64,000 nt of DNA from contig NC_087252.1 in the NCBI RefSeq assembly GCF_037042905.1, positions 6,698,001 to 6,762,000 of the forward strand, in the 5' to 3' direction. Source of the DNA: Lytechinus pictus. Taxonomy: Eukaryota. Shown one piece after another: positions 4,986 to 56,674 of the stretch (position 1 is the first letter of the stretch; each line of letters begins with the position of its first letter). Under the pieces are notes generated by a model. It saw nothing but the letters and a program-made list of their open reading frames with translations, made no database searches and was not told where the DNA came from. The position numbers were made by a program, and so were the translations under genes.

Positions 4986-5159
4986 ATTTTTTTTTTTTTG
5001 AGAGAGAAAACAAATCCTTTCACTTTTGTTGGATAACACATGCGGCTGCCGTATTCGACCGTACGTAGAATTCATCTATCTACCTACATGATATATCTAT
5101 CTATCTATCACTCTGCCTAATATATATCTATCTGTTTAAATATGTCTATCTATCCATCT

Positions 5160-5798: not shown

Positions 5799-6484
5799 TA
5801 TATCTGTCTGTCTGTTTATCTATCTATCTCTCAAACTATTTATTTTTCTATCTATCTGTCTAATAATTATCTGATTAAATATGTCTGTCTATCTATCTAC
5901 GAATCTATATATCTGTCTGTCTGTCTCTTTATCTATATATCTATCTAATATTTTTAATATGTCTGTATATCTGTTTATTTATCAATCAGTCAATCTATCT
6001 ATCTATCTATCTATCTTATTATTTATCTGTCTTTTTATCTATCTGCCTATTTATCTTTATCTATCTATCTTATGTCTATCTGTTCAAAATATGTATGTCT
6101 ATCTGTATGTCTACCTTTCATCTTTCAATCTAATATCTATTGATCTGTTCAAATAATCATGTCTGTTTATTCAACTGTTTATCTATTTGATATATATCTA
6201 TTAAATATGTTTAATGTTATTATATCTGTCTATCTATCAATAAATATATCGACCTATTTTCTCTCTATCTATACATCTATCCATCTATTTATCTATCTGT
6301 GTATGTACCTATGTATCTATCTGTCTCTGAATCTATGTTTATATCAAATATATCATAATCACCGTTATCATCATCATCATATTTGCCATCAATCATTATC
6401 AGCATCATCCTCCTCATCATCGTATATTTTTTTGTCAATCAATATCTATCTAATGTCTGTCTATCTATCTAATACCTATTTTCT

Positions 6485-6554
<70 letters not shown>

Positions 6555-9500
6555 ATTAATATATATCTATCTTCTATTAATCTATCCACCTATCATTTAT
6601 CCCTCCATCCATCCATCTATTTATCTATCTTTCTTATATGTATCTGTTTAAATATGTATGTCTATCTGTCTGTCTATTTATCTTTCATACTTATATCCAC
6701 TCATTTGTTTAAATAATTATGTCTGTTTATCTATTTATCTACGACAGACCACCTAATTCGTTCGCACGACGAATTAAAATCTAGTTTCACTTGTTACATT
6801 TTAAAGCTGAGAGAAAACAAATCCTTTCACTTTTGTTGGATAACACATACGACGGCTGCCGTATTAGACCGTACGTAAAGTTCATTCCTCACGTAAAATC
6901 CATTCCTCTCGCTACGAAAAACATTTCCCTCTTGTTGCAAAATTCATTTCACTCAATTGCAAAAAATACGTTCCTCTTTTTTCTCGGCCTGTAGGCTTCA
7001 TTGTTGGTGGGAAATAGAGATGGTTGCAACATTTTCGCTGTGCTGAGGGGAGAAATCATGAAAGCGGTTGCAACTCACAAAATGACAAGGATATGGGGAT
7101 ATCAGCGAACGCAATTACGTCACTTTCCCACGTGCACGAGAATGCACCACGAGGTGGGACCATGAACACAAAACGTAAAGTTTGATTTTATTGCTGATTA
7201 TGCACAATAGCCAGTGCAATCAGCTGTTGCATTCTGCCCTACGATCAATCACTAACCTTAGCACGGTCTGGCTATACGTTTTGTAGGCATGGGGCATGAA
7301 TACTTAATACATACAATATCTACAGAGCTGAATGGTCAAGGTAAGTGTTGAAATTTCCCTTTTCTCCATTCCGTCTGTCTTTTACTTCATTGACATACGA
7401 TGATCGTAATGATTGATGAAATGAAGCTTACAAAAATCTACAATTCACTGGTCAACTCGCTTGTACCTGCACTGCAAAACCAAATTCTCTCCAGTTTGTC
7501 CGATACATGAATGGGGGGTTTTCCAATGCTACTCTCAGAACGGGCAGTACTTCACCGTCTTTTGAACAGACATGAAAAGTGAGTATACGGGACTGATGTT
7601 GAGTGATGACGTCATCGCTCAACCCTAAAAAAATTGGTGTTAGCCGAGAATGTCCACCGAAAGCGATGACGACTTCACCCATTCAGTCATGTATGCTTTA
7701 CCGCTTATGTCTGGTTTGAAGCACTCATCCTACAAACGAGGTTATAATGGTTTGAAGAAGCACTGGCACTGCCGTGACAAAATGGTGAGAATTTGGTTTT
7801 GCAACGCAAGTACAAGCGAGTTGACCAGTGAAATGTAGCCTTTTGTATGCTTCATTTCTTCGATCATCGCGATTATCGTATGTCAATGAAGTAAAAGACA
7901 GACGGAATTGAGAAAAGGGAAATTTCAACACCTTGTCCATTTAGCTCCGGAGATAGTGTAGTGCCATGCGTGGAGCTATTCATGCTTCATATCATGCCCA
8001 CAAAACGTTAGTGATTGATCGTAGGGCAGAATACAACAGCTGATTGCACTGACTATTGTGCATAATCAGCGATAAAATCAAACTTTATGTTTTGTGTTCA
8101 TGGGCCCACCTCGTGGTGTATTCTCGGGCACGCGTACGTGGGAAAGTGTCGTAATTGGGTTCGCTGGTATCCCCATATCCTTGTCATTTTGTGTGTTGCA
8201 ACCGGATTCATGATTTCTCCCCTCAGCACAGCGAACATTTTGCAACCATCTCTGTTACCTCGTCCTGCCAACAATGATGTGCGCCGCCTACAGGCCGAGA
8301 AAAAAGAGGAACGTATTTTTTTGCAATTGAGTGAAATGAATTTTGCAACAAGAGTGAAATGTTTTTCGTAGCGAGAGGAATGGATTTTACGTGAGGAATG
8401 AACTTTACGTACGGTCTAATACGGCAGCCGTCGTATATGTTATCCAACAAAAGTGAAAGGATTTGTTTTCTCTCAGATTTAAAATGTAACAAGTGAAACT
8501 AGATTTTAATTCGTCGTGCGGACGAATTAGGTGGTCTGTCGTAAATAAATAGATAAACAGACATAATTATTTAAACAAATGAGTGGATTAATAAGTATGA
8601 AAGATAAATAGACAGACAGATAGACATACATATTTAAACAGATAAATATTAGAAAGATAGATAAATAGATTGATAGATGGAAGGAGAGATAAAAGATAGG
8701 TGGATAGATTAATAGAAGATAGATAGATATATATTAAAAGATAGATAGATATAAACAGATAAATAAGTATTAGATATATAGACATTAGATAGATATTGAT
8801 TGACGATAAAAAATACGATGATGAGAAGGATGATGCTGATAATGATTGATGGCAAATATGATGATGATAACGGTGATTATGATATGATATACACATAGAT
8901 TCAGAGACAGATAGATACATAGGTACATACGCAGATAGATAAATAGATGGATAGATATATAGATAGAGAGAAAATAGATCGATATATTTATTGATAGATA
9001 GACAGATAGAATAACATATTAAACAGATTTAATAGATACATATTAAATAGATAAACAGACATGATTATTTAAACAGATCAATAGATATTAGATTGAAAGA
9101 TAAAAGGTAGACATACAGATAGACTTACATATTTGCACAGATAGACATATTAGATAGATAGATAGATAAAGATAAATAGGCAGATAGATAGAAAGACAGA
9201 TATACAGACATTTAAACAGCCGGATAAATCATTAGATAGATAGATATATAGATTGATTGATGAATAAACAGATATACAGACATATTAAAAGAAATAAATA
9301 GATATTAGATAGATAGATAGATAGATAAAGAGACAGACAGATAGATGGATAGATAGATATGTAGAAAGATAGACATATTTAAACAGATAGACATATATTA
9401 GGCAGAGAGATAGATATATAAAGATAAATAGGCAGATAGATAGAAAGACAGATATACAGACATTTAAACACCTAGATAAATCATTAGATAGATGGAAAGA

Positions 9501-11904
9501 TAGACAGATAATTATAAGACAGATAGATAGAAAAATAAATAGTTCGAGAGATAGACAGACAGATAGATGGATAGAAAGATAGACATATTTAAACAGATAG
9601 ATATATATTAGGCAGATTAAGATCGACATATTTAAACAGATAATATATCTATCTGTTTAAATATGTCGATCTTTCTATCTATCTATCTATCCATCTATCT
9701 GTCTGTCTATTTATCTATCTATCTCTCGAACTATTTATATTTCTATCTATCTGTCTAATAAGTATCTGTTTAAATATGTCTGTCTATCTATCTACGAATC
9801 TATCTGTCTGTCTGTATGTCTCTCTATCTATCTATCTATCTATCTAACAGGCAGAGAGATAGGTAGATAGATAGATATAATAATGTAGGTAGATAGATAG
9901 ATAGATGGATTTTACGCACGGTCTAATACGGCAGCCACATGTGTTATCCAACAAAAGTGAAAGGATTTGTTTTCTCTCAAAATTAAAATGTAACAAGTGA
10001 AATGATTCTTCGTCGAACAAAAATATTTTCTTTTTGAAATATATTTTTTTGAAAAGTGAAATATATTTATTTGAAAAGTGAAATATATATATTTTTTTTA
10101 AAGTGAAATAATTTTTTTTTTAAAGCGAAATATATTTTTTATTTGAAAAGTGAAATTTATTTTTTTTGAAAAGTGAAATATATTTTTTTGAAAAGTGAAA
10201 TAGATATTTTTTGAAAAGTGAAATATATTTTTTTGAAAAGTGAAATATAATTTTTGGAAAAGTGAAATATATTTTTTTGAAAAGTGAAATATATTTTTTT
10301 GAAAAGTGAAATATATTTTTTTGGAAAAGTGAAACATATTTTTTTGAAAAGTGAAATATATTTTTTTGGAAAAGTGAAACATTTTTTGGAAAAGTGAAAT
10401 ATATTTTTTTGGAAAAGTGAAATATATATTTTTTATGTAAGTAAAATATATTTTTTTATAAAGTGGAATACATTTTTAAAAGTGAAATATAAATTTCTTT
10501 GAGTGAAATGGTTTAGTGGAAGAGAAACATATTTTTTTCAAGTGAAATATATATTTAATTGATTCCCTATAAGCGTGCCATAAATAATCTTTCAAAGTTA
10601 AGATGTTAATTCAACAAATACCCCTAACTTGGCCAAAGTTCATTGACCTTAAATGACCTTTGATCTTGATAATGTGACCTGAAACCCACACAGGATGTTC
10701 AGTGATACTCGATTATTCTTATGTCCAAGTTTCATGAATCAAATCCATAAACTTTCAGAGTTATGATGGTATTTCAACATATACCCCCAACATGACCAAA
10801 GTTCATTGACCTTTGACCTTAGTCATGTGACCTGATATTCGCACTAGCTGTTCAGTGATGATTGATTGCTCTTATGTCTAAGTTTCATGACTAGACCAAA
10901 AAAAATTAAGTTATGATGGTAATTCAACAAATACCCCCAACTTGGCCAAAGTTCATCGACCCTAAATGACCTTTGATCTTGGGCATGTGACTTGAAACTC
11001 TAGCAGGATGTTAAGTAATACTTGGTTAACTTTATGTTAAATTTTTATGAACTAGGTTTCTATATTTTTTAGGTTATGATGTCATTTTAAAAACTTAACC
11101 TTAGGTTAAGAGTTTGATGTTGATCCCCCAACATGGTCTAAGTTCATTGACCCTAAATGAGTTTTGACCTTGGTCATGTGGCATGAAACTCAGGCAGGAT
11201 GTTTAATAATACTTGATTGACCTTATGTCTAGGTTTCATGAACTGGGTTTATATTTAAGTTACGGTGTCATTTTAAAAACTTAACCTTTGGTTATATTTG
11301 GTGTTGACGTCGCCGCCGCCGTCGGAAGAGTGGCGCCATAGTGTCACTCTGCTTTGCAAGTGAGACAAATATGTATTTTCTTCCGATTGACATTTCGATA
11401 ATCTACATATAAAATAAACAAAGGATATCATGAATATAGTACAAATGAATTAAAGTAAAAAAATAAAAAAAAGTATGTAAATTATGTACATGGAAGAAGC
11501 CGTTAAAACCAGAAAACAGGTGCTTTTGTAGGGATATTCATATATGCCTGTAAAACTATGTGACGAATGTTGGCAATCCTTGTCTGGAGTACTTTTCCAT
11601 CACCAATATCTGGGCATGCAAAAGTAAAAATCGAAAGGATATACTTCTTCAAAACGAGGCACCCCCTTCCATCCTTCCCATGTTAGCATTGTTGATTGAA
11701 TTAAAGTGTAGGGGAGGCCAGCCGCAAAAAAAATTTTTTGATTTGTAGCGGTGTGCTTTCCAATCTACATATTCAGAATGACATCCTACAATCATTAGGT
11801 AATAATGAAATTAAATCTTTATTTAGATGACAAATTAATCATGACCTTTTCAAGATACAGTAGTTTGGATTTCTGTTATGGTTGCATGCAAATGACGCAA
11901 TCAC

Positions 11905-12072
11905 CTGGTATTTGCCTGATAGCAACGTCGAGATGGTTTTGTTTTGAGCGGAGGTCTCCTTTCCATACCATGCCGAAGTCACCACCCCCAATCGAGCCAA
12001 GTCTGGTGAAGAATGTCACGTTTTCACGAGCAATGACGAAGGAGTGGGGATCAAGTTTTAACGCTGTGTATG
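11905..12072 (-). pseudogene. Paralog A kinase exon (Gly loop, beta3): YTALKLDPH...IGGGDFGMVWKGDLRSKQNHLDVAIRQIP
   Basis: GxGxFGxV motif; AG/GT boundaries; homologous to 48652-48822. Confidence 0.92.
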
Positions 12073-12561
12073 CTACATTTTTTGAAGAAACATATTTATT
12101 ATACTTATTGCCATACTTGAAAGGTTAAATCCAAGCAATAAATTAAATCAAAAGCAAGACCAATATTTGATGATATACAATGACCGTCCACGAGAAGTTC
12201 AATACTTCCGGAACATTTGAAATTAATATGCTATATTTGACATGAATTCATGCAACTCAAACAATTATTTTGTATTAGATTCGACACAAGAAAGAATACA
12301 CAGAAAAAAGTATTTTGGAATATTTATTTTGGCTTTCATGATTAGGAATTAACAATATATTCCTCAGTTTACGTTATAATTTGAATTAAATTAATCACTG
12401 ACCAGAGTTTATGAGTGAGTGACTATCAGGATGTGTTGAGGTACAATTTGGTAGAAGTAAAACAAAACAGATTTTGAGAATATGATCTCGGAAATGCAGG
12501 GCTTAAAATCAAAATAATATGTTAATACAATTGAATTACAATTTCTAGAATGACTTGTTAC

Positions 12562-12632
12562 CTCGATCACCGCTTTGAACCATCTCATAAGCCACGTTGT
12601 CATTCACCTCCAATGGTTTATTTTCTTCCACT
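12562..12632 (-). pseudogene. Paralog A juxtamembrane exon: VEENKPLEVNDNVAYEMVQSGDR
   Basis: 71 bp, phase 2-1, homologous to 49544-49614. Confidence 0.85.
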
Positions 12633-12784
12633 CTGTAGAGAAAGAATGATCGGTCCATTTCATTTCGTAATTTCAACACATAAAATACCAAATAGCTTGT
12701 TTAAAGCAATTTCAAGGCATTCCATTGTAGAAATATAATCTCTCTCTCTCAATATCTTTATGTCTCTCTCCACACCCACCCCCC

Positions 12785-12883
12785 ACAGACAGACAGACAG
12801 ACAGACAGACACACACACACACACCCTCTCACACACACACACGCACCCACCCACCCACCCACACACACACACCCTCACACACC

Positions 12884-12967
<84 letters not shown>
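12785..12967. repeat. Compound microsatellite (CAGA)n(CA)n(TA)n
   Basis: Seen directly. Confidence 0.95.
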
Positions 12968-13902
<935 letters not shown>

Positions 13903-14979
13903 ATACTCAGAGCGACAGAATTTGATGATAACAAAGCAAGGTCTTGTAAATATATATGTAAAGTGTTAGCTAGTGTATTTACACTCTTGTTAAACCTAAA
14001 AAAGACAAGGACTACATAACGTATTACATCTTTCAACCAAATGATTAGAAAAGAATAGAGTCAAGGCAACAGAATAATAAATCCAATGTGTCGTGGAAAC
14101 CAGTTAACTTGAATTAAATAGAGCTGAAAATCTGTCATTAAATATCAATATATATGATCAGATATCTGACCGGTTTTTTTACGTATTGAGTACATGTATG
14201 AAGACAAATACACAGTGACTGAATTGAACTTACCAATCTTATCATTTTCTTTCTCTTTTTGATACGTACCTCAGTAAAAATTGGTACCTGAATGTTGGAA
14301 TCGAACGCCTGTGTATTACTGGCCTGTTTGTTAAGGTTAGGTTCGTTTGGTTCTGTGAGTGGTATTATATTGTGAACTATATAAAAGTGTTTTAGGGTGG
14401 GTATTCGGTATGAGATTTCTAAGAGGGTTTGAGGGGTGAGGGTGTGTGCGTATGCGTGTGGGTGTATGTGTGGGTGAGTGAGTGCGATGTTGCACTCGCT
14501 TGTCTTTAATAAAAACTTGGAGAAAGAGAGTTAGGTGAGTATGGGTGTATGCGAGCAGGTAAATGTGAGGCTGTGTGTCAGGGGTGTGGGTGTGAGATGT
14601 GCGAGTGTGAGTGTAAGGTGTGCGTGTGCGATTCTTTTTAGTTGAGGGTGTTCAGGTGGGAGGGTATTGAAATGCCAGGGTGGGTGTGTATGATTGGGTG
14701 GGCATATGAGAGTGCATGAACTGTGTGAGAATGTGTGAGAGAGAGGGTGCGAGGTAGTTCGTAAGATTATCTGAGTGGACGTGTGTGTGCGTTTGCGTAT
14801 TGTGCATGTGGAATGGAGTCGATGATGTGCCTATGCAAAATATTGGGTTCGGGTTAATGAACATTTGTATACAGTATATAGGTTGGGGCATTTCATTCAT
14901 ATAAAATGTTAGTGTTGGTGTTGCCTTGGAGTATGTCTTTGTATGTATGATCAACAAAATCTTTTTTCTTTCCACTTAC

Positions 14980-25052: not shown

Positions 25053-27847
25053 CTGCAGAATTAGAAAATCATTCTTTGAACTTGTACACTATACTTAAAC
25101 CCATGTATTTCCCGATTTTCCCCATCATAATCATCTATTCTTTCTCCCTCTGTCCATCTCTGTCCCTCTTCCTTAAAAAAATTATTCCCTTACCAACGAC
25201 TGCAAACTTATAATATTCTCGCAACGGACTTTTACATGGAAATTTTCTTTATCAAAGACCTAACGTGACTTTGTTAGTATAGTAACACCCTCTAGAAAAA
25301 TGAATAGAAAAACATATATAAATTAAGTAAAATCAATCACTAATAAGATATTTCAAATTACATAAAACCAAAAGTAATAATATTGGTAATGACCAAAAAT
25401 AATGGTAATCATGACAAACAAATAAAGAATTAATTAACGCATACATTGAATGATTTATTTATCCGTTCATTAATACATCATACTGTATATATAAATATAC
25501 ATGAATAAAGGATTAAATGAATATGATATATACCAACAAATATCATCAAACACCTTACGTTTTGTCCAGCCAAAACCAAAAACCATCTTGTCCAAAATGA
25601 TTTTTCCACAATGTTTTTTCCACCCGTTTAAGTAATACCCCCAAAATAATAAATGAATAAATATATTAAAACAAAGATCAAGCAAAATATGGCTGTCAAT
25701 TTCATATTTCGAACATTTAAATCTCAATGTCTGTATGTTTAATAAAAAATAAATGAAGATTATCTCTTAGCATAGAAGATGAGAAGGGTCATAATTATGT
25801 TAAATACACTAAATGAAAAAAACAAACAAAAATACCGTAAACAAGCAGAAGGGCTGTATAAACTCGGAAAGCCGTGAAAGGTGCCATCACTATCAAATTA
25901 TATATGGGTTTCCAATGTCTTTGGACCTTTTCGCATCCCTTGTCGACGATTCGTGCTTGAAAAAAAAACATGCATAAGTATAATAAACAGAAAAGTGAAA
26001 ACAAAGATTAATTCCTCCCTGAAAATGTAGAATTAGCATTATGTTAATATTGTATGGTCAGTCAAGTTAGTCCTTATTGTGAAATCTGTAAAAAAATGAA
26101 ATATTGTATAATTCAAACAATAAAAAACAAAATAAATAGTGAGTGATGGACATCATCGACTGTCTCATTTGCATGTCACTGAGATGTGCAAATAACTGTT
26201 TTGTGAAAAAAGGCGAAACTTTAAAATGTCATAACTTTCTTATTTTACATCCAATTTTGATGAAATTTTTAGCGTTTTGCTCGTTGGATTTATTCAAATC
26301 ATCATTTTTCTGGGGTAGACTTGACCTTTAAGGAATTGCTAAAAAATATGCATTAGCGAACCTTTTGCTTGTGCGTTTAAATATTTTACTTTTTTCAAGC
26401 TCCATCAGAACAGCTTGACCGTTAACTTGATCGGGGCGCTTGCATTTTTTAATCATGTTTTTGTATTTGAGAACCCCGAGATGTAAGAAGCCGACATGTA
26501 TATTCATTCCCCGAGTAAGTGCAAACTGAATGCCAACTACAGATATATAAGTTAATTAATCAGGGGCGTACGCAGAAGAGGGGGGGGGGGGAACAGGGGC
26601 TCAAACCCTCCCCCATATTTTTTTTCTTTTTTTAAACTCATTTTACGTAGAGATTCAGAACCCCCTAACCATTTTTTTGGGGGGGTATGGAAGGACCACA
26701 TTTTCTTCTGAAAACCTTGTCACATTTTGTTGGTACGAAACGACCGCCAAATTTGGCTGAAACCCTTTTTTTTTGCTTGTCATATTTCTATTCATGTTTC
26801 AAAAATCCAGGGTATGCCCCTGTTATTAATTAGAAACAAGTTAAAAGAATAGTTTGAAATCACGTCGAGTTCTGCCTCTGTTCTGTGAGTCGTGTCCACA
26901 ACAGCTGCGTGACGTTGTTATTGGGGCAATTCCATAAAATTATCAACCTTTTTGTACATCCGACTCCCATTCTCTTTAAGTTTTACTTCACTTCATAAAC
27001 CGATCAATTCATGGTTCTTTAAGAACACTACAGACTTTCAAAAGAACAAGAAATCAGAGACAGAGTTCCCACATATGGAATTGCACATTGTTCAAATAGC
27101 TTCTTTCTGAAGCCTGAAGGCAAGAAAATTGTTTAAGTGCAAGCAAAGGCTTATGCATACGAAATAAAGCAATTGCTAAGACATGATCTTTTTCTTGTCT
27201 CGCAATTGCTTGTGTTTAAGGAAATTTCTACTTTTTATGCATCTGACCCAATGTTATTAAAACTACAAAAAATTGCCATAATTGATACGCAAATATAACA
27301 CAATTTTGAATGTCCAAAATTGATTATTACAGACCCTACTCCTCATTCGACGAACACGAACATCATGTCGTAATATTTAGACACTCAATAAATTTGTCAA
27401 AAAACTTTTTTTTATATCCATAATCACTTCTTTTACTGTGATAAAAATAATAAATTTTTAAGAAGCTTAAATAATGAAGGATATAATACATTTATTACTG
27501 CTTACTGATGAACGGGAAAGACTTGATATCCATATGCTTAAAAGGGAAATCTCGTATGAACCAACAATTATAAAGAAATCAGTACGCTGAATATTTTTTT
27601 TATAGAGTACCCTACTTCCTCCAGGAGTGAGGTGACAATTCATCGGAAATGTATTACTATTTAAATGCATATACGGTGAAATACAATACGAAATTCGGGT
27701 ATTCTCAATATCATTTGCTTATATAAGGAAACTGTTAAATTATGGCAATCGTCTTCCGAGAAACACGTGTTTCTTACTGTTCCTAAATTATCTTATGACG
27801 ATGTCTAGCATACGTACCTTAGTGCTGAACATGCTAAAACTCCTTAC

Positions 27848-27911
27848 CTGGTGATAGAGTAAATAGCAAAACCAGTAGTTGATAGAGAAAGATGGACGAT
27901 AAATTATCCAG
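27848..27911 (-). pseudogene. Paralog A signal-peptide exon: (CTG)DNLSSIFLYQLLVLLFTLSP
   Basis: Hydrophobic core; CAG/gtaagg donor in phase 1 joins the Ig exon; first codon is CTG with an in-frame TGA two codons upstream. Confidence 0.7.
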
Positions 27912-28008
27912 ATATCACTGAATGAGGGGGTACTTCAAATCTGCTAATGATGGTATACTGTAGATCTATTATCGTTTGGCAATTCTAAATAGGTTTAGAT
28001 ATATATAT

Positions 28009-30228
28009 TGTAGCCGAACCGACTTTCTTTCCTGACGAGCTGGTTCGTTTCGGCTGCAATATACAACCAGTTGATGTTAAGTCCGTCTTTCTTCACTTCT
28101 GACTCTTTACTCCTTCATAATATCTTATATCATATCTCGTGGAACCGCACAACCATGTTGAAGACCGAATACCCAGCATTCAGTATTTCCGTAATTTCAG
28201 TATCTTGGTAAGAACTTTCAAGCATCCTCACTCATCTCGGAATCTCGGTAAGATCAGTAATTCCCGTCTATTCTCTCGACTCAGTACTTTCCGTATCTTC
28301 TCTCGAGTCAGTATTTTCAGTATCTCAGGAAAGTCGGTATTTTCTGTACTTCAGTAAAGTCAGTATTTTCCGTACTTCGGTAAAGTCAGTATTTTCCGTA
28401 CTTCTCACTTTTTCCAGTCAGTACTTCCAACACTTTTCGTGCTTCTGCTTTTCAGACCATGCATTCTGTAGCTCCGTACTCAACACAATCCGGACCTTTC
28501 GTTTGAGGACGCGCACGCTTATTTACGACGTTAGTTGATTTTGGAAGAGACTTTTTGGGCCCGTCATCATGGTCGTCCTGCAATGCAAATTGTGTGACAT
28601 GAGATTTTTTTTTCGTTTCGCATCTGCGACGGAAACATTCAATATGCGTTTCGTGTGCAAAATGTTGGTTGCTACTATGGTAACAGCGATATATCTCATT
28701 GAGGACGACTTTCCAAAGCCACATTTGACTCCTCCTAGAGCTCGAGAGGCCGCCCGGGGGGCCCACTTCCATTGATTAGTGGATCCCAGGGGCGACCACG
28801 CGTAAAAGGGGACAGAGTGGGCAGGTACGTTACGTATAGGCCTATGTAACGTTATAAGGGTGTCAAAACGATGTTTAAAATGCTGACAAAAAAGGGATAT
28901 CCAATACTTGTAGGGTTTCACAAGCCAAATTCTTGTTAAGAGATGCATTTTCATAATCTGGAAAAGAATTACTTCCCAGCTTGTTTAGGGTATTTTTCGA
29001 AACCCCATGGTCGTGCCTGGTATCCACTCATTAATGGAAGTGGTCCCCCCGGAATTTGAATCTAATCCCCATTTCTGGGGGAAGTAAAACATAATGCCCA
29101 TTACATCGTGTGCGAGAGGCATATCGTTTGTGTAGAAGGAATAAACAAAAGAAACAAAAGAAACAAAAAGAAACGAGTTCAAATGTATTACATAATGGTG
29201 TGCACATATCAACTCACGCGAAATGTTCGGCTGGAGAGGTTGATCTGACCCATGAAATCAATTGCCAGTGATACACCAATAATCCACATTAAATGTAATA
29301 TCGATTCGATGGACTGTAATGATCTATATCTAAGCCTTCATTCAGTAAGTTTTTCCTCACTCAATATGTACTCGATTTGTTTGAAAAACCACTTTCTTAT
29401 CCATGTCATAATCTATTTTAGGTCTTCATTTCGAATATCTCAAACCATCAGTCGTAATATACATGCTATGTATGGTGCGAGTGTCGCAGAAAAGGATTTT
29501 GCACACGAAAAGCAGATCTCTAGGGCCTGTAACCCCCCTGTAACACAAAGTTTAGCATTGATTGTAGAGCAGTTTTCTACGTTTGATTCTATTGACTATA
29601 ATGCACATTCAATCTTAAAAATCAAGTGTATGATTAAGCGTTAACTTTTGTGTTAGGGGACACTAATATTAGCGTCCGTGAGGATTGCGAAAGGTCCCAA
29701 ATGACAGGCATGAAAACGAAGTATTTCTTTCTTCAAACTTTACTAGAATACATGCTCACCCTGGCGCAGCAGGATCAAACAGAACTTGAGCAGAGTTTCG
29801 GGCAGAAAATACTACTTGTAGGCCTAGTAGCCTGGTTTGTGATCGAGCGTATAGTAGACCTGTACCAATCTAGCTCATCGATTGAGGAGGGAGCTTGTCA
29901 GGCTATAAAATTTTATCACTATTTAAAAATAGTTAAAGTCATAGAATAAATCTTTTCAGTAAGACAATGGTGATTGTCACTTATTTTGTGTATCCAAACA
30001 GTGTGAAATTATTAAACATAAAGAGCTAAAACAATTATACAGTTGTAAACTTCGATACTTCTCAGCAAAAAGGCATAATTACATTTTTACAGAAAATCAC
30101 TACATAATCGATTACAAGCGATTACTGAATTTCGCTATACAACTATAAATATGGGTTAAAAATTATTCTACAGTCTTTGCCGTTCCAAAACAACACTGAT
30201 AATTAAATAAACCTTTCATTTTGTTACA
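28009..30228 (-). repeat. 3' LTR (about 1007 bp, interrupted by a 1.2-kb insertion)
   Basis: 28009-28489 and 29700-30228 match the 5' LTR with roughly 8 substitutions and one 1-bp indel (counted by eye). Confidence 0.95.
28490..29699. mobile_element. Composite non-autonomous element inserted in the 3' LTR
   Basis: Absent from the 5' LTR; apparent AAT duplication; 10-bp inverted repeat ggacctttcg (28492) / cgaaaggtcc (29688); diverged inverted relative at about 58360-59075. Confidence 0.85.
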
Positions 30229-30231
30229 CAA

Positions 30232-30241
30232 CTCCCTCCTT
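30232..30241 (-). promoter_or_regulatory. Polypurine tract
   Basis: AAGGAGGGAG three bases upstream of the 3' LTR start TGTAACA on the minus strand. Confidence 0.85.
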
Positions 30242-30626
30242 CGAAAAGCTCGGTCCCCGAGCTGTCCAATTTCCTAGCAAAGCAACACTTGCAAATTCAG
30301 TTTCTTTACATTTTGTAACAATTCCATAAGAAATTATCATGTTTAATATGAGCAAGATAACCACTCCGCATTTTCTAATTTCAAACTTCCTATGGATATA
30401 ACATTCGAGATGATTTTTTTTTCCTTCCATCTGAGTTTGTAAACAATATTTCTAAAGATGAACTAAACTACATACAACTTCTATGTACACAAACGTTAAC
30501 ATCATCATACATTAAAAGGCTACAACAAACGATGCAGAATTTTCTTCTCAAGAGTCCTTTTCCGTTTTGTTTAATTCTGCATTTTATGCAAGAGTCTTTT
30601 GAGAGTCATTTTCAGTTTATATAGAA

Positions 30627-31373
30627 TTATGGTTCATCCGGCACTCTTTTGATTTCTTCTGTGAAAATTTCAACGAGCTCTCCTTGTTTGGTGATATATC
30701 TTTCAGTTTTACGTGTAAGGATCACATCTCTGGGTATTTTGATGGATGATGTGGTATACTCCAAAACCGATCCCCCATCATGTCCAGCTTCCCTCAGCTT
30801 AGCTGTCAGATTCCTGACGCGCTTCCGGAGTTCTCCGTCTTCCTCTGTCTGGCAACTGGCGTCGCAGCACCTTGAAGGAGTCTTCTCTGCAGATCTAAAT
30901 CTTTGGTGAGATTTCCCTCGGTCGTTCCGATGAGAAGATTGAGGTGTATTAGATGCGGGTGACCGAGAGCGGCTTCTGCTTCTTCGTCGAATGACACTTC
31001 TTACAGACCTTTCCGGACTTCTTGATGACCTAGGTGCTGAGTGGGAATATCTTCCGCTATCCCTAGGAGATCTCGGGCTCCGGTGTCGGAATGGTGACCT
31101 GTCTAAACGGGACCTAGATTCCGGAGTGTGAACTGGAGTTTTTCCATACTTTCTGGTTGGGACTGGCTCTGCATGGGTCGCTTCATGTTTTTCCAAGTCG
31201 CCCTTCCTTCCACATCTGTAATCGCATTTGGTGCATCTGAACCTTTTCACATGACATTCCCGGTGATGGCGATTAAGCTGTGCCAGTTTCTCAAACGTTT
31301 TGCTGCATTCCCCACAGGAGAATTCATTGTGTGATACTTTGCTGGAAATGCTGATCTCGTCGTCACTCACCAT
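30627..31373 (-). CDS. Retrotransposon accessory protein: two C2H2 zinc fingers, Arg/Ser-rich region, short predicted helix (248 aa from ATG)
   Basis: CGECSKTFEKLAQLNRHHRECH and CTKCDYRCGRKGDLEKHEATH, then RRRSRSRSRSP. Intact ORF between pol and the PPT, preceded by the acceptor tttttattgcag. Confidence 0.85.
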   Translation of the reverse strand: MVSDDEISISSKVSHNEFSCGECSKTFEKLAQLNRHHRECHVKRFRCTKCDYRCGRKGDLEKHEATHAEPVPTRKYGKTPVHTPESRSRLDRSPFRHRSPRSPRDSGRYSHSAPRSSRSPERSVRSVIRRRSRSRSRSPASNTPQSSHRNDRGKSHQRFRSAEKTPSRCCDASCQTEEDGELRKRVRNLTAKLREAGHDGGSVLEYTTSSIKIPRDVILTRKTERYITKQGELVEIFTEEIKRVPDEP

Positions 31374-31573
31374 CTTCTGCAATAAAAATTGGAGAAGAGC
31401 ATAAAATTGGTCATAATTCTGGGCCCGAAATTCGATTTAATTTGTAGCGTGAAACAAAACAGCTGAATTTTATATCCTTCATCTTATTTTACATCTAAAC
31501 GACAGAGTGCATGGTCAAAGCAGAAATACGTTTGTTGTTGGTGAATAATCAATCAACTGTGGTCGTTGTAAGT

Positions 31574-34500
31574 TTAGTTGTTATTGGTTGTTCTGAATTG
31601 CCATACTGGAAGCTCAACACCTTGGTATTTCTTCATGCGATCTGCATGGACCACAAGTGGTAGAGATCTAGGAGATTGTTGAAGACGAAATGTGACAGCA
31701 GAGAGCTTCGAAACGATAAGAAACGGTCCGAGCCATCGGGGTTCCAATTTTGGAGATACTCCTTTTTTTCTAGTTTTCTTTCTGAGCCACACGTATTGCC
31801 CCACGTTGAAGTCGGCCTCGGATGCCCTTCTGTTGTATAGAGTGCGTTGTCGGCTTCCAGCATCCTTTAGGTTTCTTCTTGCTCTTTCATGTACTGTCCG
31901 TAGTGTATCTCTGAGTTTGAAGGCGTAGTCAGTATTAACTTCTTCATCTAGTGGGGTGGGCGGCATTACCAGATCTATTGGTAAGGTGACTTCTCTTCCT
32001 AGCATAAGCATGTTCGGAGTTTCTCCAGTGGACTCTTGAGGACTGCTCCGGTATGCTGCTGTGGCAAAGGGGATATATTTATCCCAGTCACGTTGATGCG
32101 ACTCTGAATCCATCATAGAGGCAACCGTGTTGAGAAGAGTCCGATTAAATCTTTCAATTAGGCCATCGGACTTCGGGTTATAGGGCGTTGTCCGAGTCTT
32201 CTTTACACCCATCAGGCGGCATACCTCTTTGAATACATCCGACTCGAAGTTTCGGCCCTGGTCAGAATGGATGACTGAGGGGACTCCGAATCTACAGAGG
32301 ACTTCTTTCACTAGCTTTTCTGCCACGGTGTCGGCTCGTTCATCAGGTATAGCAAATGCTTCCATCCATTTAGTGAAATAATCCCCAACAACTAAGACAT
32401 ATTTATTGCCATTTGTAGATTCGGGTAACGGACCAAGGATGTCTAGGGCTATACGGTCCATTGGAGATCCACTTATTTGTTGTTGCAAGGGTGCTCTGGT
32501 ATGTACTCCGCTAGCTTTTCTTTTTGCACAGATGTCGCACTGGCGTATTCCAGATCGGAAATCTTCTGTCATCCCGACCCAGAAATACTTCAATCGTGCT
32601 TTCTCGAGGCACTTCTTGATGCCGAAATGGCCTGCGGTAGTAGCAGAATGCATTTCTTTCACCATCTCTTGTACCATGACTCGGGGCACCACAAGTTGCC
32701 ACCTGGTTATTTCCCCATCACTTGACTCCCACCTGCGGTAGAGCACTTCATTCTTGATGTGTAGTGAATCCCAGTATTCTAAGAGACGCTTAGCTTCTCT
32801 TGGCCAGGCAGATGTTTGGGCATCGCTTGGTTTCTGCCCATCCAGTTTGGCCTGTACTACCGGCTTGATCCCGACATCACTTCTCTGTTGGTCTTTGAGT
32901 TCTTTTTGTTCTTCCTCAGTATCAACTGATAATATCCGTACTTGTTCTGGATCTGAGTCTGCTTTGCTATCTTCACGCCCGCACTGCTTACATGGTCGTC
33001 GGGACAAACTGTTTGCATTACTATGGTTCCTTCCAGGTCGGTGAATGATGTCCATGTCGTACTCTGAAATAACCTCAAGCCAGCGGGCAAGTTGTCCGGC
33101 GGGTTCTTTGAAACTTGTCAACCACCTGAGAGATCCGTGATCGGTTCTCACAGTGATATGACGTCCATATAAGTACTGGCGAAAATGTTTCAAGAAGATG
33201 ACGATGGCAAGTAATTCCTTCCTAGTGACACAATAGTTTCTTTCAGTTTTCTTGAGTGTCTTGCTTGCGTACGCAATTACTTTCTCTTGCCCATCCTGGA
33301 TCTGAGACAAGACTGCACCTACTGCAAAATCACTAGCATCAGTGTCCAGAATCATCTGTCCATCGGGCTCAGGGTATGCTAATATGGGCGAGGTGGTGAG
33401 TCTCTCCTTAAGCTGATCGAAAGCTGACTGGCATTCTTCTGTCCAATCAAAGTGTCTGTTCTTTTCCATAAGCTGATGCAAAGGTCTGGCGATCTCTGCA
33501 AATCCCTTGACATAACGTCGGTAATAGGATGCTAAACCAATGAAGCTCCTGAGCTCTGATACAGAAGTTGGGTAATCCCAGTCACGTACAGAGCTTATCT
33601 TCTCTGGATCTGTGCTCACACCTTCAGCCGAGACGACGTGTCCGAGATATCGTACACTTCTACAGAACAGATAACACTTTGATGGTTTCAGTTTAAGGCC
33701 TGCTTCTTTCAGCCGTTGGAATACCATTCTCAGCCTTGTCAGTTCTTCTTCTATTGTTCTGCCATACACGATGACATCGTCCAGATACACAAGCAAGATC
33801 TCCCACTTTAAACCGGCTACCACTCGGTCCATCAGCCTTTCAAACGTGGCCGGCGCATTACATAGCCCGAAAGGCATAGCGCGCCAGGTATATAACCCTC
33901 CATTCGCGAAGAATGCAGATTTCTGTCTTGCCTGTTCGTCCAATTCCACTTGCCAATATCCACTGGCTAAGTCTAATGTGGAGAACCACTTCGCCCCGCC
34001 TAACGCATCTAAGGTGTCACTTATTCTTGGTAGCGGGTAAGCGTCTTTAATGGTGCTAGCATTTAGTTGGCGGTAGTCAACACAAAACCGCTTGCTTCCA
34101 TCCTTCTTGGATACCAACACTACATTTGATGCCCATGGGCTAGAAGTAGGTTCTATCAAACCATGTTGCAGCAAATCCTGAACTTGCCGTTCAATCTCTT
34201 CCCTCTGTGGGGCTGGATATCTTCTATGTGCTTGTCGAAACGGTGGTGTATCTCCGGTGTTGATGCTATGCTGCACATAGTCAGTTCTCCCAATATCAAA
34301 CGAACCCTTCGAAAAGATATCACTGAAGTCCCCTAGTAACTGTGATATGGATTCCTGATATTCTACTGGGACATTCTGCATGGTTCTAGCGAATAGATCA
34401 GTCAGGTGTTCTGGTATGCCAGTCGTAGGTTGTTTACCACATGAGTCCAGGCCCGTGGTTTCCTCTTTCTTCAGAGATGTCATACTAGCTACACAAGTTC

Positions 34501-36490
34501 CTTTCTTGATGACTCTATGTTGTTGGGTTGTGTTGAGAATCCGTACAGGGAGGATCTTTTCCTCGGCGCTTACAACAGCTCGTGCAACCATCAAACCTTT
34601 ACCGAGTAATTCCGTACCATCTCGCGGTCCTTCCAGTAAAGCCGAACCACTAAGGAACTGAGTGTTCCTAGCTTCGCCTGGTAGAATGACTTCACAGCCG
34701 GCCGGAATAGTACTTGTTTGCTGTGCAACAATTCTACAGCAAAATGAATTCCCTTCGTGATCTTGGCATGCTATGGTTCCCTTCGGAGTTCTCAACTCCA
34801 ACATTCTGAGATCTAGTACCACATTCATCTGGATGAGTAAGTCCAGTCCAATGATTCCTTGATTCTTCAGCGCAGCTACTATGACTTCGGAGGCCGCCGC
34901 CATACCTCCAATTTCTAAGACGATCGATGCTCTCCCCATTGTTTCTAGCGGTGAACCGTCTGCCTGGTAAACCATGTCTGTAATTCTACGAAGAGGAGGT
35001 CTCCTTGACTCAATGATGTTGCCGTATACCTCGTTTGATACTAGAGTATGTGAAGAACCAGTATCTATCAGAAATTTTACTGACTGCCCGTTAAGCTTCG
35101 CATTAACGAACAAACCCTGTCTCTTGGCATCCTCTGATGTTCCAACTCTAGCCTGGCCGGGTTCAGGATTGTTCTCTCCTAAATTTCCGTCATCCGGCTC
35201 TTGCTCTTTATTACTGACTTCTTCATGGATATCATCCGTGTTGGATTCAGATGTGATCATGGAGACATGAGCATTTGACTTTGGACAATTCTTGATGAGA
35301 TGTCCCGTTTGGTTACAGTTGTGACATCGTCTCTCAGTAGTCTGATCACTTGTTTTCTCCTTCCTAGGATGTGGACACTTGTTAGCAAAATGGCCAGATT
35401 CTCCACAATTGTAGCAATTGTTGTTTTCTCGGTTGGTCTGCTGTCCAGCTCCATGAGATGCTGTATTCTGTCTTGGCCTTTCAGTAGTTTTGGATTCCAT
35501 TTCCAGAATGAGATCTTTAAGGAACTTTTTCATTCTCACTTCCCATGAGGCTTCTTCAGTAGGGGAAGGGTTTCCGGCATTATCCCCTGAAACAGCTCGG
35601 CTGTACCTGGTTTGTCGGTAGTCCCTCCTGTCTCCTTCCATCCTTAGGAACGCCTCCGTATTCAGGGCAGCTTCTATTGCCTCGTCCAATGATCTTGGTT
35701 GCGAGCGAAACAGTCCTTCCCGAATCTTACTATCCATAATTGCATCTAGGAAATGCCCCCTCGCCAACCGGTCTTGTCCGTCTTCATCGAATTCGGGATA
35801 GGCGAGAGCCGTCATATCTCTAACACTCTGTCCTAATTCCTGGAGGGTCTCTTTAGGCTTTCTCCGTCTCTGTCGCAACTCGGCGAGATAGACTTCCGCT
35901 TTTCCACCTGGACCATATCTTTTTCTCATTCTGTCAACCAGTTCACAGTAACTCAGTCTTCTTCCCGTTTTCTGGGTTAGCAATTTAACAGCAGAACCTC
36001 TTAAGCTGGCTGCCAGATATTTCATCGCTTCGGATTCTCCCCATTCATTCACTACAATGCATGCCTCAAAATGGTTTATATAGTCTTCAACTGGCGAGCG
36101 ACCATCGAACCGATCTGGTATCACATTTGGTTTCTTTGATCTTACATCAGGATAATTCGGTTGACTTGACAAAGGATTTTCTGATTCGGTTCTCAACTGT
36201 GCTGTTGGTCTGTGTTGTGTATTTGATAGCCTGGTTCCGTGAAATTCTTGTTCAAGACTAGTGGGTTGCGGTACTTGTGCTGTTGCTCCGAAATTTTCAA
36301 TTGGTGAAGACTGGAACTGAACTCTTGGCCCTTGCCTACTGCTTGCCTCATCAGTCCCCCATGATGGCGTGAACCCCACACTGGTTCGCAACTCCGCCAT
36401 CATCTGGTCAATCTCCGCCATACTGCTTTCCAACCTCTCCATCACTTCAGCCGGCGATACCGCACGCCCTCTTTGTCCTCTGACATCCAT
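31574..36490 (-). CDS. gag-pol: Gag-Pol polyprotein (single ORF): capsid-like Gag, two CCHC knuckles, aspartic protease, RT, RNase H, integrase
   Basis: CYNCGESGHFANKC, CHNCNQTGHLIKNC, LIDTGS, YLDD, LDTDAS, HHCC, DILGP/HSDQG/IERFN and GPF motifs; first ATG after the PBS at 36488-36490. Confidence 0.97.
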   Translation of the reverse strand: MDVRGQRGRAVSPAEVMERLESSMAEIDQMMAELRTSVGFTPSWGTDEASSRQGPRVQFQSSPIENFGATAQVPQPTSLEQEFHGTRLSNTQHRPTAQLRTESENPLSSQPNYPDVRSKKPNVIPDRFDGRSPVEDYINHFEACIVVNEWGESEAMKYLAASLRGSAVKLLTQKTGRRLSYCELVDRMRKRYGPGGKAEVYLAELRQRRRKPKETLQELGQSVRDMTALAYPEFDEDGQDRLARGHFLDAIMDSKIREGLFRSQPRSLDEAIEAALNTEAFLRMEGDRRDYRQTRYSRAVSGDNAGNPSPTEEASWEVRMKKFLKDLILEMESKTTERPRQNTASHGAGQQTNRENNNCYNCGESGHFANKCPHPRKEKTSDQTTERRCHNCNQTGHLIKNCPKSNAHVSMITSESNTDDIHEEVSNKEQEPDDGNLGENNPEPGQARVGTSEDAKRQGLFVNAKLNGQSVKFLIDTGSSHTLVSNEVYGNIIESRRPPLRRITDMVYQADGSPLETMGRASIVLEIGGMAAASEVIVAALKNQGIIGLDLLIQMNVVLDLRMLELRTPKGTIACQDHEGNSFCCRIVAQQTSTIPAGCEVILPGEARNTQFLSGSALLEGPRDGTELLGKGLMVARAVVSAEEKILPVRILNTTQQHRVIKKGTCVASMTSLKKEETTGLDSCGKQPTTGIPEHLTDLFARTMQNVPVEYQESISQLLGDFSDIFSKGSFDIGRTDYVQHSINTGDTPPFRQAHRRYPAPQREEIERQVQDLLQHGLIEPTSSPWASNVVLVSKKDGSKRFCVDYRQLNASTIKDAYPLPRISDTLDALGGAKWFSTLDLASGYWQVELDEQARQKSAFFANGGLYTWRAMPFGLCNAPATFERLMDRVVAGLKWEILLVYLDDVIVYGRTIEEELTRLRMVFQRLKEAGLKLKPSKCYLFCRSVRYLGHVVSAEGVSTDPEKISSVRDWDYPTSVSELRSFIGLASYYRRYVKGFAEIARPLHQLMEKNRHFDWTEECQSAFDQLKERLTTSPILAYPEPDGQMILDTDASDFAVGAVLSQIQDGQEKVIAYASKTLKKTERNYCVTRKELLAIVIFLKHFRQYLYGRHITVRTDHGSLRWLTSFKEPAGQLARWLEVISEYDMDIIHRPGRNHSNANSLSRRPCKQCGREDSKADSDPEQVRILSVDTEEEQKELKDQQRSDVGIKPVVQAKLDGQKPSDAQTSAWPREAKRLLEYWDSLHIKNEVLYRRWESSDGEITRWQLVVPRVMVQEMVKEMHSATTAGHFGIKKCLEKARLKYFWVGMTEDFRSGIRQCDICAKRKASGVHTRAPLQQQISGSPMDRIALDILGPLPESTNGNKYVLVVGDYFTKWMEAFAIPDERADTVAEKLVKEVLCRFGVPSVIHSDQGRNFESDVFKEVCRLMGVKKTRTTPYNPKSDGLIERFNRTLLNTVASMMDSESHQRDWDKYIPFATAAYRSSPQESTGETPNMLMLGREVTLPIDLVMPPTPLDEEVNTDYAFKLRDTLRTVHERARRNLKDAGSRQRTLYNRRASEADFNVGQYVWLRKKTRKKGVSPKLEPRWLGPFLIVSKLSAVTFRLQQSPRSLPLVVHADRMKKYQGVELPVWQFRTTNNN

Positions 36491-36511
36491 TTCTGAACTT
36501 CTACACCAACT

Positions 36512-36529
36512 ATCCCACTTCTGACACCA
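36512..36529 (-). promoter_or_regulatory. Primer binding site, tRNA-Leu type
   Basis: TGGTGTCAGAAGTGGGAT, 2 nt inside the 5' LTR end; complementary to the 3' end of tRNA-Leu(CAA). Confidence 0.9.
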
Positions 36530-36531
36530 CG

Positions 36532-37537
36532 TGTAGCCGAACCGACTTTCTTTCCTGACGAGCTGGTTCGTTTCGGCTGCAATATACAACCAGTTGATGT
36601 AAAGTCCGTCTTTCTTCACTTCTGACTCTTTACTCCTTCACAATATCTTATATCATATCTCGTGGAACCGCACAACCATGTTGAAGACCGAATACCCAGC
36701 ATTCAGTATTTCCGTAATTTCAGTATCTTGGTAAGAACTTTCAAGCATCCTCACTCATCTCGGAATCTCGGTAAGATCAGTAATTCCCGTCTATTCTCTC
36801 GACTCAGTACTTTCCGTATCTTCTCTCGAGTCAGTATTTTCAGTATCTCAGGAAAGTCGGTATTTTCTGTACTTCAGTAAAGTCAGTATTTTCCGTACTT
36901 CGGTAAAGTCAGTATTTTCCGTACTTCTCACTTTTTCCAGTCAGTACTTCCAACACTTTTCGTGCTTCTGCTTTTCAGACCATGCATTCTGTAGCTCCGT
37001 ACTCAACACAATGACAGGCATGAAAACGAAGTATTTCTTTCTTCAAACTTTACTAGAATATATACTCACCCTGGCGCAGCAGGATCAAACAGAACTTGGG
37101 CAGAGTTTCGGGCAGAAAATACTACTTGTAGGCCTAGTAGCCTGGTTTGTGATCGAGCGTAAAGTAGACCTGTACCAATCTAGCTCATCGATTGAGGAGG
37201 GAGCTTGTCAGGCCATAAAATTTTATCACTATTTAAAAATAGTTAAAGTCATAGAATAAATCTTTTCAGTAAGACAATTGTGATTGTCACTTATTTTGTG
37301 TATCCAAACAGTGTGAAATTATTAAACATAAAGAGCTAAAACAATTATACAGTTGTAAACTTCGATACTTCTCAGCAAAAAGGCATAATTACATTTTTAC
37401 AGAAAATCACTACATAATCGATTACAAGCGATTACTGAATTTCGCTATACAACTATAAATATGGGTTAAAATTATTCTACAGTCTTTGCCGTTCCAAAAC
37501 AACACTGATAATTAAATAAACCTTTCATTTTGTTACA
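36532..37537 (-). repeat. 5' LTR (1006 bp)
   Basis: TGT...ACA ends, matches the 3' LTR, adjacent to the PBS and the TSD. Confidence 0.97.
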
Positions 37538-38429
37538 ATATGGTAACACCGCTGCAATGTTAATCTTTCAACCTGCTTCGATACAAATGTTAAGTATAGG
37601 CTTAACTCACCCGCAGGATAGATCTAAAGCCCCCATCACACTTATTCCGAATCAAGCAGAATTGGCCCGAATGAAAGGACTATTGTTCGACCACCAGTCG
37701 GTCATTCAAATCTACTTCGAACACCGTTCGAAAATACCCCTCGAATGTTTTGAACATGACCAAAACCTTCGGGACGGCCAAAAGAAATGACAAAAATATT
37801 TCGAATGCACTCAGAATGCAGTCAGAATATCTAGAATGCGCCTAGGATGTCCAAGAATGTAGCACGAATTATTTATCTGACTCCATTGCGGTTCATTTTG
37901 ACTAGTGTATGATGATTCACCTGGTCAATTTCCTGAATTTTAACTCCAGTTTGGTGAATTCATAAGTTCCTCCCAAAAATTTCTAGATATTTTGAATATT
38001 TTTTTCTTTCCAGCTTCTGCTTGATTCCTGCTGATTCCGAATAAGTGTGACGGGGGTATAAGTGCAGATGTATCTAGATGTTAAAGGCGAAGTTCACCAT
38101 GACGAAAAGTTTGTTGCAAAAATAGCAGAAAATAATAACAATAAAAATGATGAAGGTTTAACAAAAAATCCATAAAAACGATCCAGAAAGTGATTATAAT
38201 TTTAAGTTTTTGAATTATTACGTCAGATATGAACAGCTGCCTGTTTATTTTACGATATCATATTGATATTTACAAATTGTTTTTTTAGTGTTCATTCTTC
38301 CAGGAGACAGTGTGAAATGATTGGGATATTGATATGCTGAATATACAATGAAACCAAAGAAAACTTTATTCAAGAAAATGACAATCCATTGAATTTTGTA
38401 ATTCACGATAATAGAAAGCTGTTCACATA

Positions 38430-56300: not shown

Positions 56301-56674
56301 CATGAAAAAGTTATAAAACAAATAGAAAAAATTACGTGTGCTAAATTGCATGCACAAATTGTATAATTGGATGCACAATGTCGAAATTGAATGCTCTAAC
56401 ATAGATTGTGGGGGTATCACGGGCGAACTTGGTTGCACTATGTACACATTCGTATACCGAGTGGCGGATTTGGTTGCTCTAAAGCAATTATGAATGCCAA
56501 ATGGCCATTTTGGTTGCACTATAGCGAATTTGGATGCCGACTGGTGATTTTGGCTGCCCTATCTAATAAATTGAATGACCTATTTATACTTTGTCATGCA
56601 CTATGTGCGAAATTGAATGACCTATCTTTAATTTTGCATGCACTAAGTGCGAAATTGGACGGGAAAACCTATAT
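53388..56674. mobile_element. Non-autonomous TIR element (about 1.64 kb) with a second copy of itself (54021-55660) inserted in the opposite orientation
   Basis: Four termini taggttttcccg / cgggaaaaccta at 53391, 54021, 55657 and 56671; 53391-54018 pairs with 55030-55657 and 54021-55020 pairs with 55663-56671. Confidence 0.85.

Follow-up and report, generated by a model that had tools for sequence, protein, structure and literature searches.

A spliced and selected C2H2 zinc-finger accessory gene in the env position of a sea urchin Ty3/Gypsy clade

The LTR retrotransposons of animals are commonly regarded as gag-pol elements in which env is optional. In Drosophila gypsy the env gene is expressed from a spliced RNA that uses a donor in the LTR. 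Complex retroviruses encode trans-acting regulators of their own expression, exemplified by Tat, Rev, Tax and Tas. In the env position of Ty3/Gypsy elements one characterised regulator is found in the accessible literature, CERV of the C. elegans element Cer1, which is spliced, nuclear and switched by phosphorylation, and is needed for export of the genomic RNA (PMC10309623). As far as the accessible text of that report describes it, CERV has 517 aa, is confined to nematodes, and comprises H, M and G-protein-like domains besides a possible C4 finger (PMC10309623). Env-slot genes of other kinds are described, in the portions of the sources at hand, from Juno and Vesta of bdelloid rotifers (PMC5408684), from orchids (AlkB; PMC9289625) and from the plant element Grande (gene23; PMC7264820). 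These genes are family-specific, often spliced, and have been gained and lost; some of the additional plant ORFs are nuclear, and the set comprises enzymes (DEDDy, GDSL, AlkB), membrane proteins and antisense genes. VANDAL DNA transposons encode a trans-acting regulator, VANC, and VANC21 is predicted to dimerise, according to the available part of the preprint (bioRxiv 10.1101/2024.04.02.587720). For the Echinodermata, the available text of a survey of Gypsy elements records none that carry env (PMC13524379), and the slot therefore holds other cargo here; supplementary file 3 of that survey, on echinoderm gag-pol elements, may include the family described below.

The window, a 64,000-nucleotide stretch of the sea urchin Lytechinus pictus, carries on its minus strand a Ty3/Gypsy element with a third ORF in this slot (ORF3), which is a real, spliced and selected accessory gene of a Gypsy clade and for which a function can be proposed. 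The initial annotation knew of no characterised example of such a gene. CERV supplies a precedent, and the kind of system is therefore known, although the domains of CERV differ: both are spliced non-env ORFs in the env position, whereas ORF3 is set apart by description as a stand-alone protein of 248 aa with two C2H2 fingers, an Arg-Ser (RS) linker, an LC8-type motif and a beta meander. Moreover, CERV shares exons with gag, which the one ORF3 splice joint observed does not. With the env genes of errantiviruses and other Ty3/Gypsy elements ORF3 has in common the post-pol position and a spliced RNA with an LTR donor. However, the highest 19-residue hydropathy of ORF3 is 0.37, so that it has no membrane helix, and no fusion-protein match was found; an env identity was therefore rejected, as had already been proposed. 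No sequence or fold relation to Tat, Rev, Tax, Tas or VANC was found, and those proteins are required or shown to act, whereas ORF3 is dispensable in cis and its role as a regulator is only predicted. Among the rotifer, orchid and plant ORFs, as far as the accessible texts go, no protein combining C2H2 fingers, an RS region and an LC8 motif was found. No C2H2 ORF3 in animal Gypsy elements was found in the accessible literature, though such proteins may already be annotated in Repbase, GyDB or Dfam.

The focal element is complete and young, with two LTRs, a tRNA primer site, a polypurine tract and a target duplication. Its 5' LTR (36532..37537, minus strand, as are all element features below; 1006 bp, TG...CA) and its 3' LTR (28009..30228) mismatch at 8 of about 1006 positions and at one gap position, and a 4-bp target duplication, ATAT, lies at its flanks (37538-37541 and 28005-28008). 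The near-identity of the LTRs around the ORF is thus as first described, but the picture of a simple LTR-bounded element needs amending, in that the 3' LTR is not continuous: it lies in two pieces (30228-29700 and 28489-28009) split by a foreign insertion of 1210 bp at 28490-29699. The insertion has a 3-bp duplication (AAT) and imperfect terminal inverted repeats, is 84% similar to 58464-59069, and looks like a non-autonomous DNA transposon. The primer-binding site (36512..36529) is complementary to the 3' end of host tRNA-Leu, a 15-mer of it ending the tRNA-Leu(CAG) genes at loci L141 and L142, and the polypurine tract lies at 30232..30242. Between them is a single gag-pol ORF of 1638 aa (31574..36490), in which Pfam identifies two CCHC motifs, protease, RT, RNase H and an integrase with an SH3-like C-terminus, the pol order protease, RT, RNase H, integrase being that of Ty3/Gypsy. 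Ahead of its first ATG the gag-pol frame stays open for a further 49 codons (36637-36491), reaching through the primer site into the LTR. An Rfam scan of 27500-38000 gave no match. Elsewhere in the window, 4300-14000 and 53400-56700 hold satellite-like arrays and large nested inverted repeats, whose arms measure 270-350 nt at 95-98%; these have no relation to the element.

ORF3 (30627..31373; ATG at 31373, stop at 30627) begins 200 nt past the gag-pol stop and ends about 380 nt ahead of the polypurine tract, its 248-codon frame being free of internal stops, as the initial annotation had it. The two C2H2 fingers also reported there (residues 18-67, 31173..31322; helices KLAQLNR and RKGDLEK) match Pfam zf-C2H2 over two stretches at E 6.8e-07. 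They are followed by a disordered linker rich in Arg, Ser and Pro (residues 71-166, 30876..31163), whose length varies among homologues and which accounts for the stretch of about 90 aa recognised as rich in RS and SP: its 96 residues include 23 Arg and 22 Ser (47% together), 19 RS/SR dipeptides and 5 SP.

Expression of ORF3 from a spliced subgenomic RNA, for which an acceptor 3 nt before the ATG had been predicted, is seen in one assembled contig. Four sequencing runs (X1, X7, X11 and X12) were aligned to 30229-37560, and a 1202-nt contig of X7 follows 30235-31376 without mismatch and then continues at 37070 in the LTR, with 60 nt on the LTR side and a depth of 4.4, X7 being a run of unrecorded type. 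The junction falls exactly at the predicted exon start of 31376, and the contig spans the whole ORF, against the possibility that no transcript covers it. The skipped 5693 nt read GT..AG on the sense strand (CT..AC on the plus strand), between a donor in the 5' LTR that agrees with the consensus at 8 of 9 positions (37064..37072; exon end at 37070, intron GT from 37069) and a pyrimidine tract with an AG acceptor (31377..31402; intron end at 31377, exon 2 from 31376). This joint skips the gag ATG at 36490 and removes the primer site together with all of gag-pol, which lies wholly within the intron, and X7 has zero cover over 31454-36353. A spliced DNA retrocopy was rejected as the source of the joint, the joined form having no match at up to one mismatch in the one genome searched. 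Among the other runs, X1 covers 222 nt of ORF3 with no joint. X8-X10 belong to one study with X7 and contain 0.77-0.79 of the words sought, close to the 0.83 that exon 2 alone would give. Two RNA runs, X11 and X12, of which about 6% was read, yielded 37 and 14 reads on the LTR and gag-pol, all of them first mates oriented as sense RNA requires, and none on ORF3. The run index listed no RNA run that contains the sequence.

A search of the genome with ORF3 returned 15 matches, namely six intact copies (97-100%), three that are broken or partial, and remnants of related families. All are element copies or decayed remnants and none is a host gene, and a recent capture from the host, which had been raised as a possibility, was rejected. 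In all eight copies that retain internal sequence upstream, ORF3 directly follows pol, in line with the expectation that it is always found there. When one within-family pair from each of five families is pooled, dN/dS is 0.27 (22/932 vs 20/3112, Fisher p 5e-05), not near the value of 1 expected of a decaying frame. The focal copy gives 0.26 (p 1e-04) against the older, broken copy L021 and 0.39 (p 0.10, not significant) against the intact copy L020. Pairwise values to the focal copy span 0.16 to 2.07 and rest on few changes, as do the values above 1 given by two copies that are young or partial; between families the ratio is not computable because dS is saturated. These substitution counts indicate that ORF3 is under purifying selection, and a chance ORF was rejected. 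One of the copies, L016 (C17:17079731-17088051), is very young and seemingly recombinant, differing from the focal copy by 18-26 changes per 500 nt in the LTR and gag and by 0-4 in the 3' half. Two others on contig C11, L043 and L044, are near-identical and share a deletion of the integrase end and most of ORF3; they probably go back to a single old copy that was duplicated along with its flanking sequence.

Beyond this genome, homologues in ENA, Logan and JGI align over the full length at 27-64% identity, with the fingers, a short Gln motif and the C-terminal domain kept and the linker varying. A metagenome scan yielded three loci, two of them ordinary multi-finger genes and one a true homologue (L135, a metagenome contig), which follows a pol-like tail and has an AG acceptor 1 nt ahead of its ATG. 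A profile search of 1.84 billion representatives was dominated by multi-finger host proteins, and five rows among the best 150 matched by the C-terminal part or the whole length. NCBI proteins 97% identical to ORF3 are assigned to Lytechinus pictus. In RefSeq the ORF3 proteins appear under host-gene names (zinc finger protein 672-like, 774-like and PRDM16-like), and sea urchin zinc-finger counts are therefore inflated.

The distribution of ORF3 was followed through an integrase search of the genome, which gave 132 matches; 30 loci and 60 longer stretches were examined, the latter chosen by eye to span families. A pol tree of 62 rows, confined to elements of this genome, midpoint rooted and supported by SH-aLRT only, places the ORF3-bearing elements in a clade of 39 rows (SH-aLRT 99) with 13 lineages. 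A C2H2 ORF3 is present in at least one copy of 12 of the 13 sampled lineages: focal, L026, L078, L080-82, L086, L088, L090-92, L093, L097, L098, L099 and L102. L102 was recognised as ORF3-bearing after the tree had been labelled, L026 is frameshifted and L097 is truncated. In the 11 lineages measured, an AG lies 0-12 nt before the ORF3 ATG behind a tract of 56-89% pyrimidines, and L026 appears likewise as judged by eye. Most ORF3s of the clade end in a beta-hairpin, in a loose alignment in which distant C-termini were compared without statistics. The linker is of a family-specific type, being RS, Glu/Lys/Arg-rich or made of acidic repeats.

The env slot of this genome also holds other contents. 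A second Gypsy clade of 15 tree rows (L115-L117, L119-L128 and L133; integrase about 38-43% identical) has in the same position a long ORF3 that ends in a TatD-family nuclease, for example at L125:3290-4579 on the minus strand. Three of these proteins were scanned and match Pfam TatD_DNase at E 4e-29, 3e-24 and 4e-31; most of the ORFs lie behind a pyrimidine tract and AG, and several have a single Cys/His finger-like motif. In three outgroup Gypsy lineages (L106-L108, L110-L113 and L118) pol is separated from the polypurine tract by an AT-rich stretch of about 1.7-1.8 kb, and in the three such stretches read no convincing ORF was found on either strand.

ORF3 is dispensable in cis. It is absent from all four rows of family C and from L103 and L104, L102 having it, and in family E it is intact in 1 of 21 loci examined, with three loci matching genome-wide. 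Family E (L083-L087, L095 and L130-L134) is the most numerous family sampled, and its ORF3-less form has spread; this form differs from L086 by about 18-20% in the 3' region and LTR and by about 1% in pol. The donor-like site of L086 (8/9) is missing in 9 of 9 alignable ORF3-less sister LTRs, L101 being interrupted; this joint loss of ORF3 and donor-like site counts as one event. L103 and L104 have retained donor candidates despite the loss of ORF3, and donor strength is in general no separator, the best scores being 7-9 in ORF3-positive and 7 in ORF3-less LTRs. In L016, whose ORFs are intact and whose LTRs agree at 1013 of 1014 positions, the donor GT is missing from both LTRs. Of what was first suggested for ORF3, a real, selected, element-borne accessory gene is supported, and the putative regulatory role has to accommodate a gene that is not needed in cis. 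Selection on a gene that is not needed in cis argues for action in trans or for a conditional benefit.

Part of the protein described initially as a short helix and a charged C-terminus proves more structured in models. The helix is there, but the 'charged C-terminus' is the best-conserved folded part of ORF3. An AlphaFold model built on six sequences has the fingers, disorder over residues 71-176, a helix (177-195) and three long strands (203-213, 217-227 and 233-243), and the C-terminal domain modelled alone on 12 sequences reaches pLDDT 79 and pTM 0.58. On these models the domain (residues 177-243, 30645..30845) is a helix plus a three-strand beta meander, probably serving oligomerisation or interaction, and its open sheet is likely to be completed by a partner. 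A search of 48,161 chains for folds at Z >= 5 found none (best 4.0 for the whole model and 3.9 for the C-terminal domain), and Foldseek against PDB and BFVD gave no match at E 0.001 or better. The ESM Atlas offered no usable match for the C-terminal part and only generic C2H2 clusters for the whole protein. The absence of a fold match proves neither a new fold nor a lack of relatives.

Immediately before this domain lies a conserved LC8 (dynein light chain)-binding-type motif that had escaped the initial annotation (residues 167-177, 30843..30875). In the focal protein it reads D-A-S-C-Q-T-E, with Asp at -4, Cys at -1, Gln at 0, Thr at +1 and Glu at +2; in the homologues the anchor is a canonical TQT, SQT or VQV, and position -4 is Asp or Glu. 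All 8 family-group proteins examined contain the motif, as do L026, L091 and, with two occurrences, L086, and it is absent from L078, L082, L088, L098, L099 and L102; the 1638-aa gag-pol has no match to it. The ORF3 motif conforms to published LC8 anchor rules, and in the accessible text of the same source many anchor-bearing peptides do not bind LC8 (PMC6607443). A model of ORF3 in complex with a host LC8 (L067) scored 0.68 against 0.46 for the best control, with contacts only at residues 167-176, run agreement of at least 98% and partner pLDDT of at least 48; among solved pairs 51 of 78 reach the mark applied, as against 2 of 108 mismatched ones (39 of 65 and 2 of 126 in eukaryotes). Binding of LC8 by ORF3 is thus predicted, with the proviso that LC8-peptide complexes have already been solved and the model may pass by reproducing them. 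The host genome has at least 18 full-length intronless LC8-family genes, many of them clustered (L067-L074 on contigs C2 and C6, and more on C11). A similar architecture is known from ASCIZ/ATMIN, a zinc-finger transcription factor with LC8 motifs in a disordered region (PMC10046861, PMC6607443, in the parts available). ASCIZ, however, is a host gene with many motifs, whereas ORF3 is element-borne with one (two in the L086 group), and the likeness is architectural only.

As to the fingers, base-contact residues are present at -1, 3 and 6, and the nearest solved sequences are DNA-binding fingers. Finger 2 has Arg at -1, Asp or Glu at 3 and Arg or Lys at 6 in 6 of 7 two-finger homologues of the family group and in L026, L078 and L102, which under the recognition code is the pattern of DNA-reading fingers. 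The finger helices of L082, L091, L097 and L099 are not canonical. By the same code the ORF3 pair would presumably read about N-C-G-G-A-N. The LTR part downstream of the donor (36608..36999) has 26-nt tandem repeats and six ACGGA words, on the sense strand only, which are candidate binding sites; the count of six in the focal LTR against 1.28 expected is post hoc and inflated by tandem duplication. ACGG-containing words are enriched in ORF3-less LTRs as well, and ACGGA is therefore a lead only.

Collectively these observations favour, at somewhat less than even confidence, a reading of ORF3 as a trans-acting nuclear regulator dimerised by LC8, which would bind element DNA and tune transcription or silencing. 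Transcription would start in the 5' LTR, and splicing from the LTR donor to the acceptor at 31376 would drop the primer site and gag-pol to yield a short ORF3 mRNA. The protein would enter the nucleus and act as a dimer, joined by host LC8 docked at residues 167-176 as well as by its own C-terminal domain, so that two 2-finger units would form one four-finger DNA binder on repeated element sites, most simply those of the LTR. The linker, phosphorylatable where it is rich in Arg, Ser and Pro and acidic or otherwise charged in sister families, could recruit or exclude host transcription, silencing or RNA-processing factors, and this effect would set the timing of full-length RNA production. Nuclear location, DNA binding, the target site and the direction of the effect are what we infer. 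Action in trans with a conditional advantage would explain the losses of ORF3 from single copies and subfamilies. A bolder and doubtful extension makes an old animal Gypsy clade 'complex': each family would have its own sequence-specific C2H2 factor, LC8-dimerised in one branch, binding repeats in its own LTR and switching on or shielding the element. Finger specificity and LTR sites would then co-evolve, and ORF3-less subfamilies would parasitise ORF3-bearing ones.

An alternative that borrows from CERV and Rev would have the spliced transcript as the default, with ORF3 binding element RNA and, through phosphorylated Ser-Pro or Arg-Ser, blocking splicing or exporting the unspliced form. Gene position and spliced expression are as in CERV in the accessible account (PMC10309623), X7 contains the spliced form and no gag-pol, and the element faces an export problem, its intron containing both gag-pol and the primer site. 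The loss of ORF3 together with the donor-like site in family E is as predicted, although this is one event, and L103 and L104 have kept donor candidates. The initial annotation took the RS domain as a hint of a splicing or export factor. Such a linker is indeed present in the focal family, L026, L078 and L086, but most sister families are without RS repeats, with only 2-5 RS/SR dipeptides in L082, L088, L091, L093, L098, L099 and L102 and Glu/Lys/Arg-rich or acidic linkers in their place. Since the RS region is inconstant across sister families, the analogy with splicing factors is weakened. SR splicing factors share the RS-dipeptide region, but ORF3 lacks their RRM, a Pfam scan to E 0.1 having matched neither RRM nor any other RNA-binding family. 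Two fingers joined by a non-canonical linker (VKR, with neither a TGEKP-type linker nor three or more fingers) may bind RNA or protein instead, against which finger 2 resembles a DNA reader. In a scan for a structured RNA response element, 1 of 120 windows had z below -3.3, within the tandem repeats, and no clearly structured element was convincing. The export reading is unlikely as it stands. It may be combined with the favoured DNA regulator, since the LTR repeats follow closely on the donor, and a factor bound to them could affect the nascent RNA.

The fast divergence of ORF3 between families (saturated dS), its swapped linkers and its repeated loss also suit a protein directed at the host, which would target host genes, the sites of finger proteins or silencing factors, or soak up LC8 as a decoy. 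The TatD nuclease in the same slot of the sister clade fits an arms-race cargo slot of this kind. However, no host target was identified, and the specificity residues of finger 2 are conserved rather than diversified across most of the family group, which leaves counter-defence improbable. Decidedly improbable is a helper that would use LC8 to couple dynein to capsids or pre-integration complexes, or would tether the integrase to chosen DNA. The LC8-type motif and complex model accord with it, as do three AT-rich target duplications (ATAT, CTAT and ATAT), but LC8 is described, in the accessible text, as mostly a dimerising hub for disordered clients (PMC10046861), and ORF3-less families likewise end on ATAT-like flanks, so that targeting does not track ORF3. 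A functionless passenger, be it a captured host exon or a decaying remnant of the env slot, would account for the frequent loss, the lack of ORF3 reads in two RNA runs and the host zinc-finger names at NCBI, but is very improbable given the intact frame, dN/dS well below 1 in many families, the conserved acceptor, domain-wise conservation at 27-40% identity and the absence of any host gene among the 15 genome matches.

In one sea urchin, therefore, the env slot holds a clade-wide C2H2 protein, and in another clade TatD nucleases. The C2H2 proteins of hosts are known as repressors of transposons, and an element-encoded C2H2 factor would reverse that role. If the doubtful extension to a 'complex' clade holds, retrotransposons would have in ORF3 their equivalent of foamy-virus Tas or plant VANC, made from a fold that hosts use to silence transposons. 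A dozen families with different fingers and LTRs, natural ORF3-less and donor-less sisters and a tractable embryo model make its function testable.
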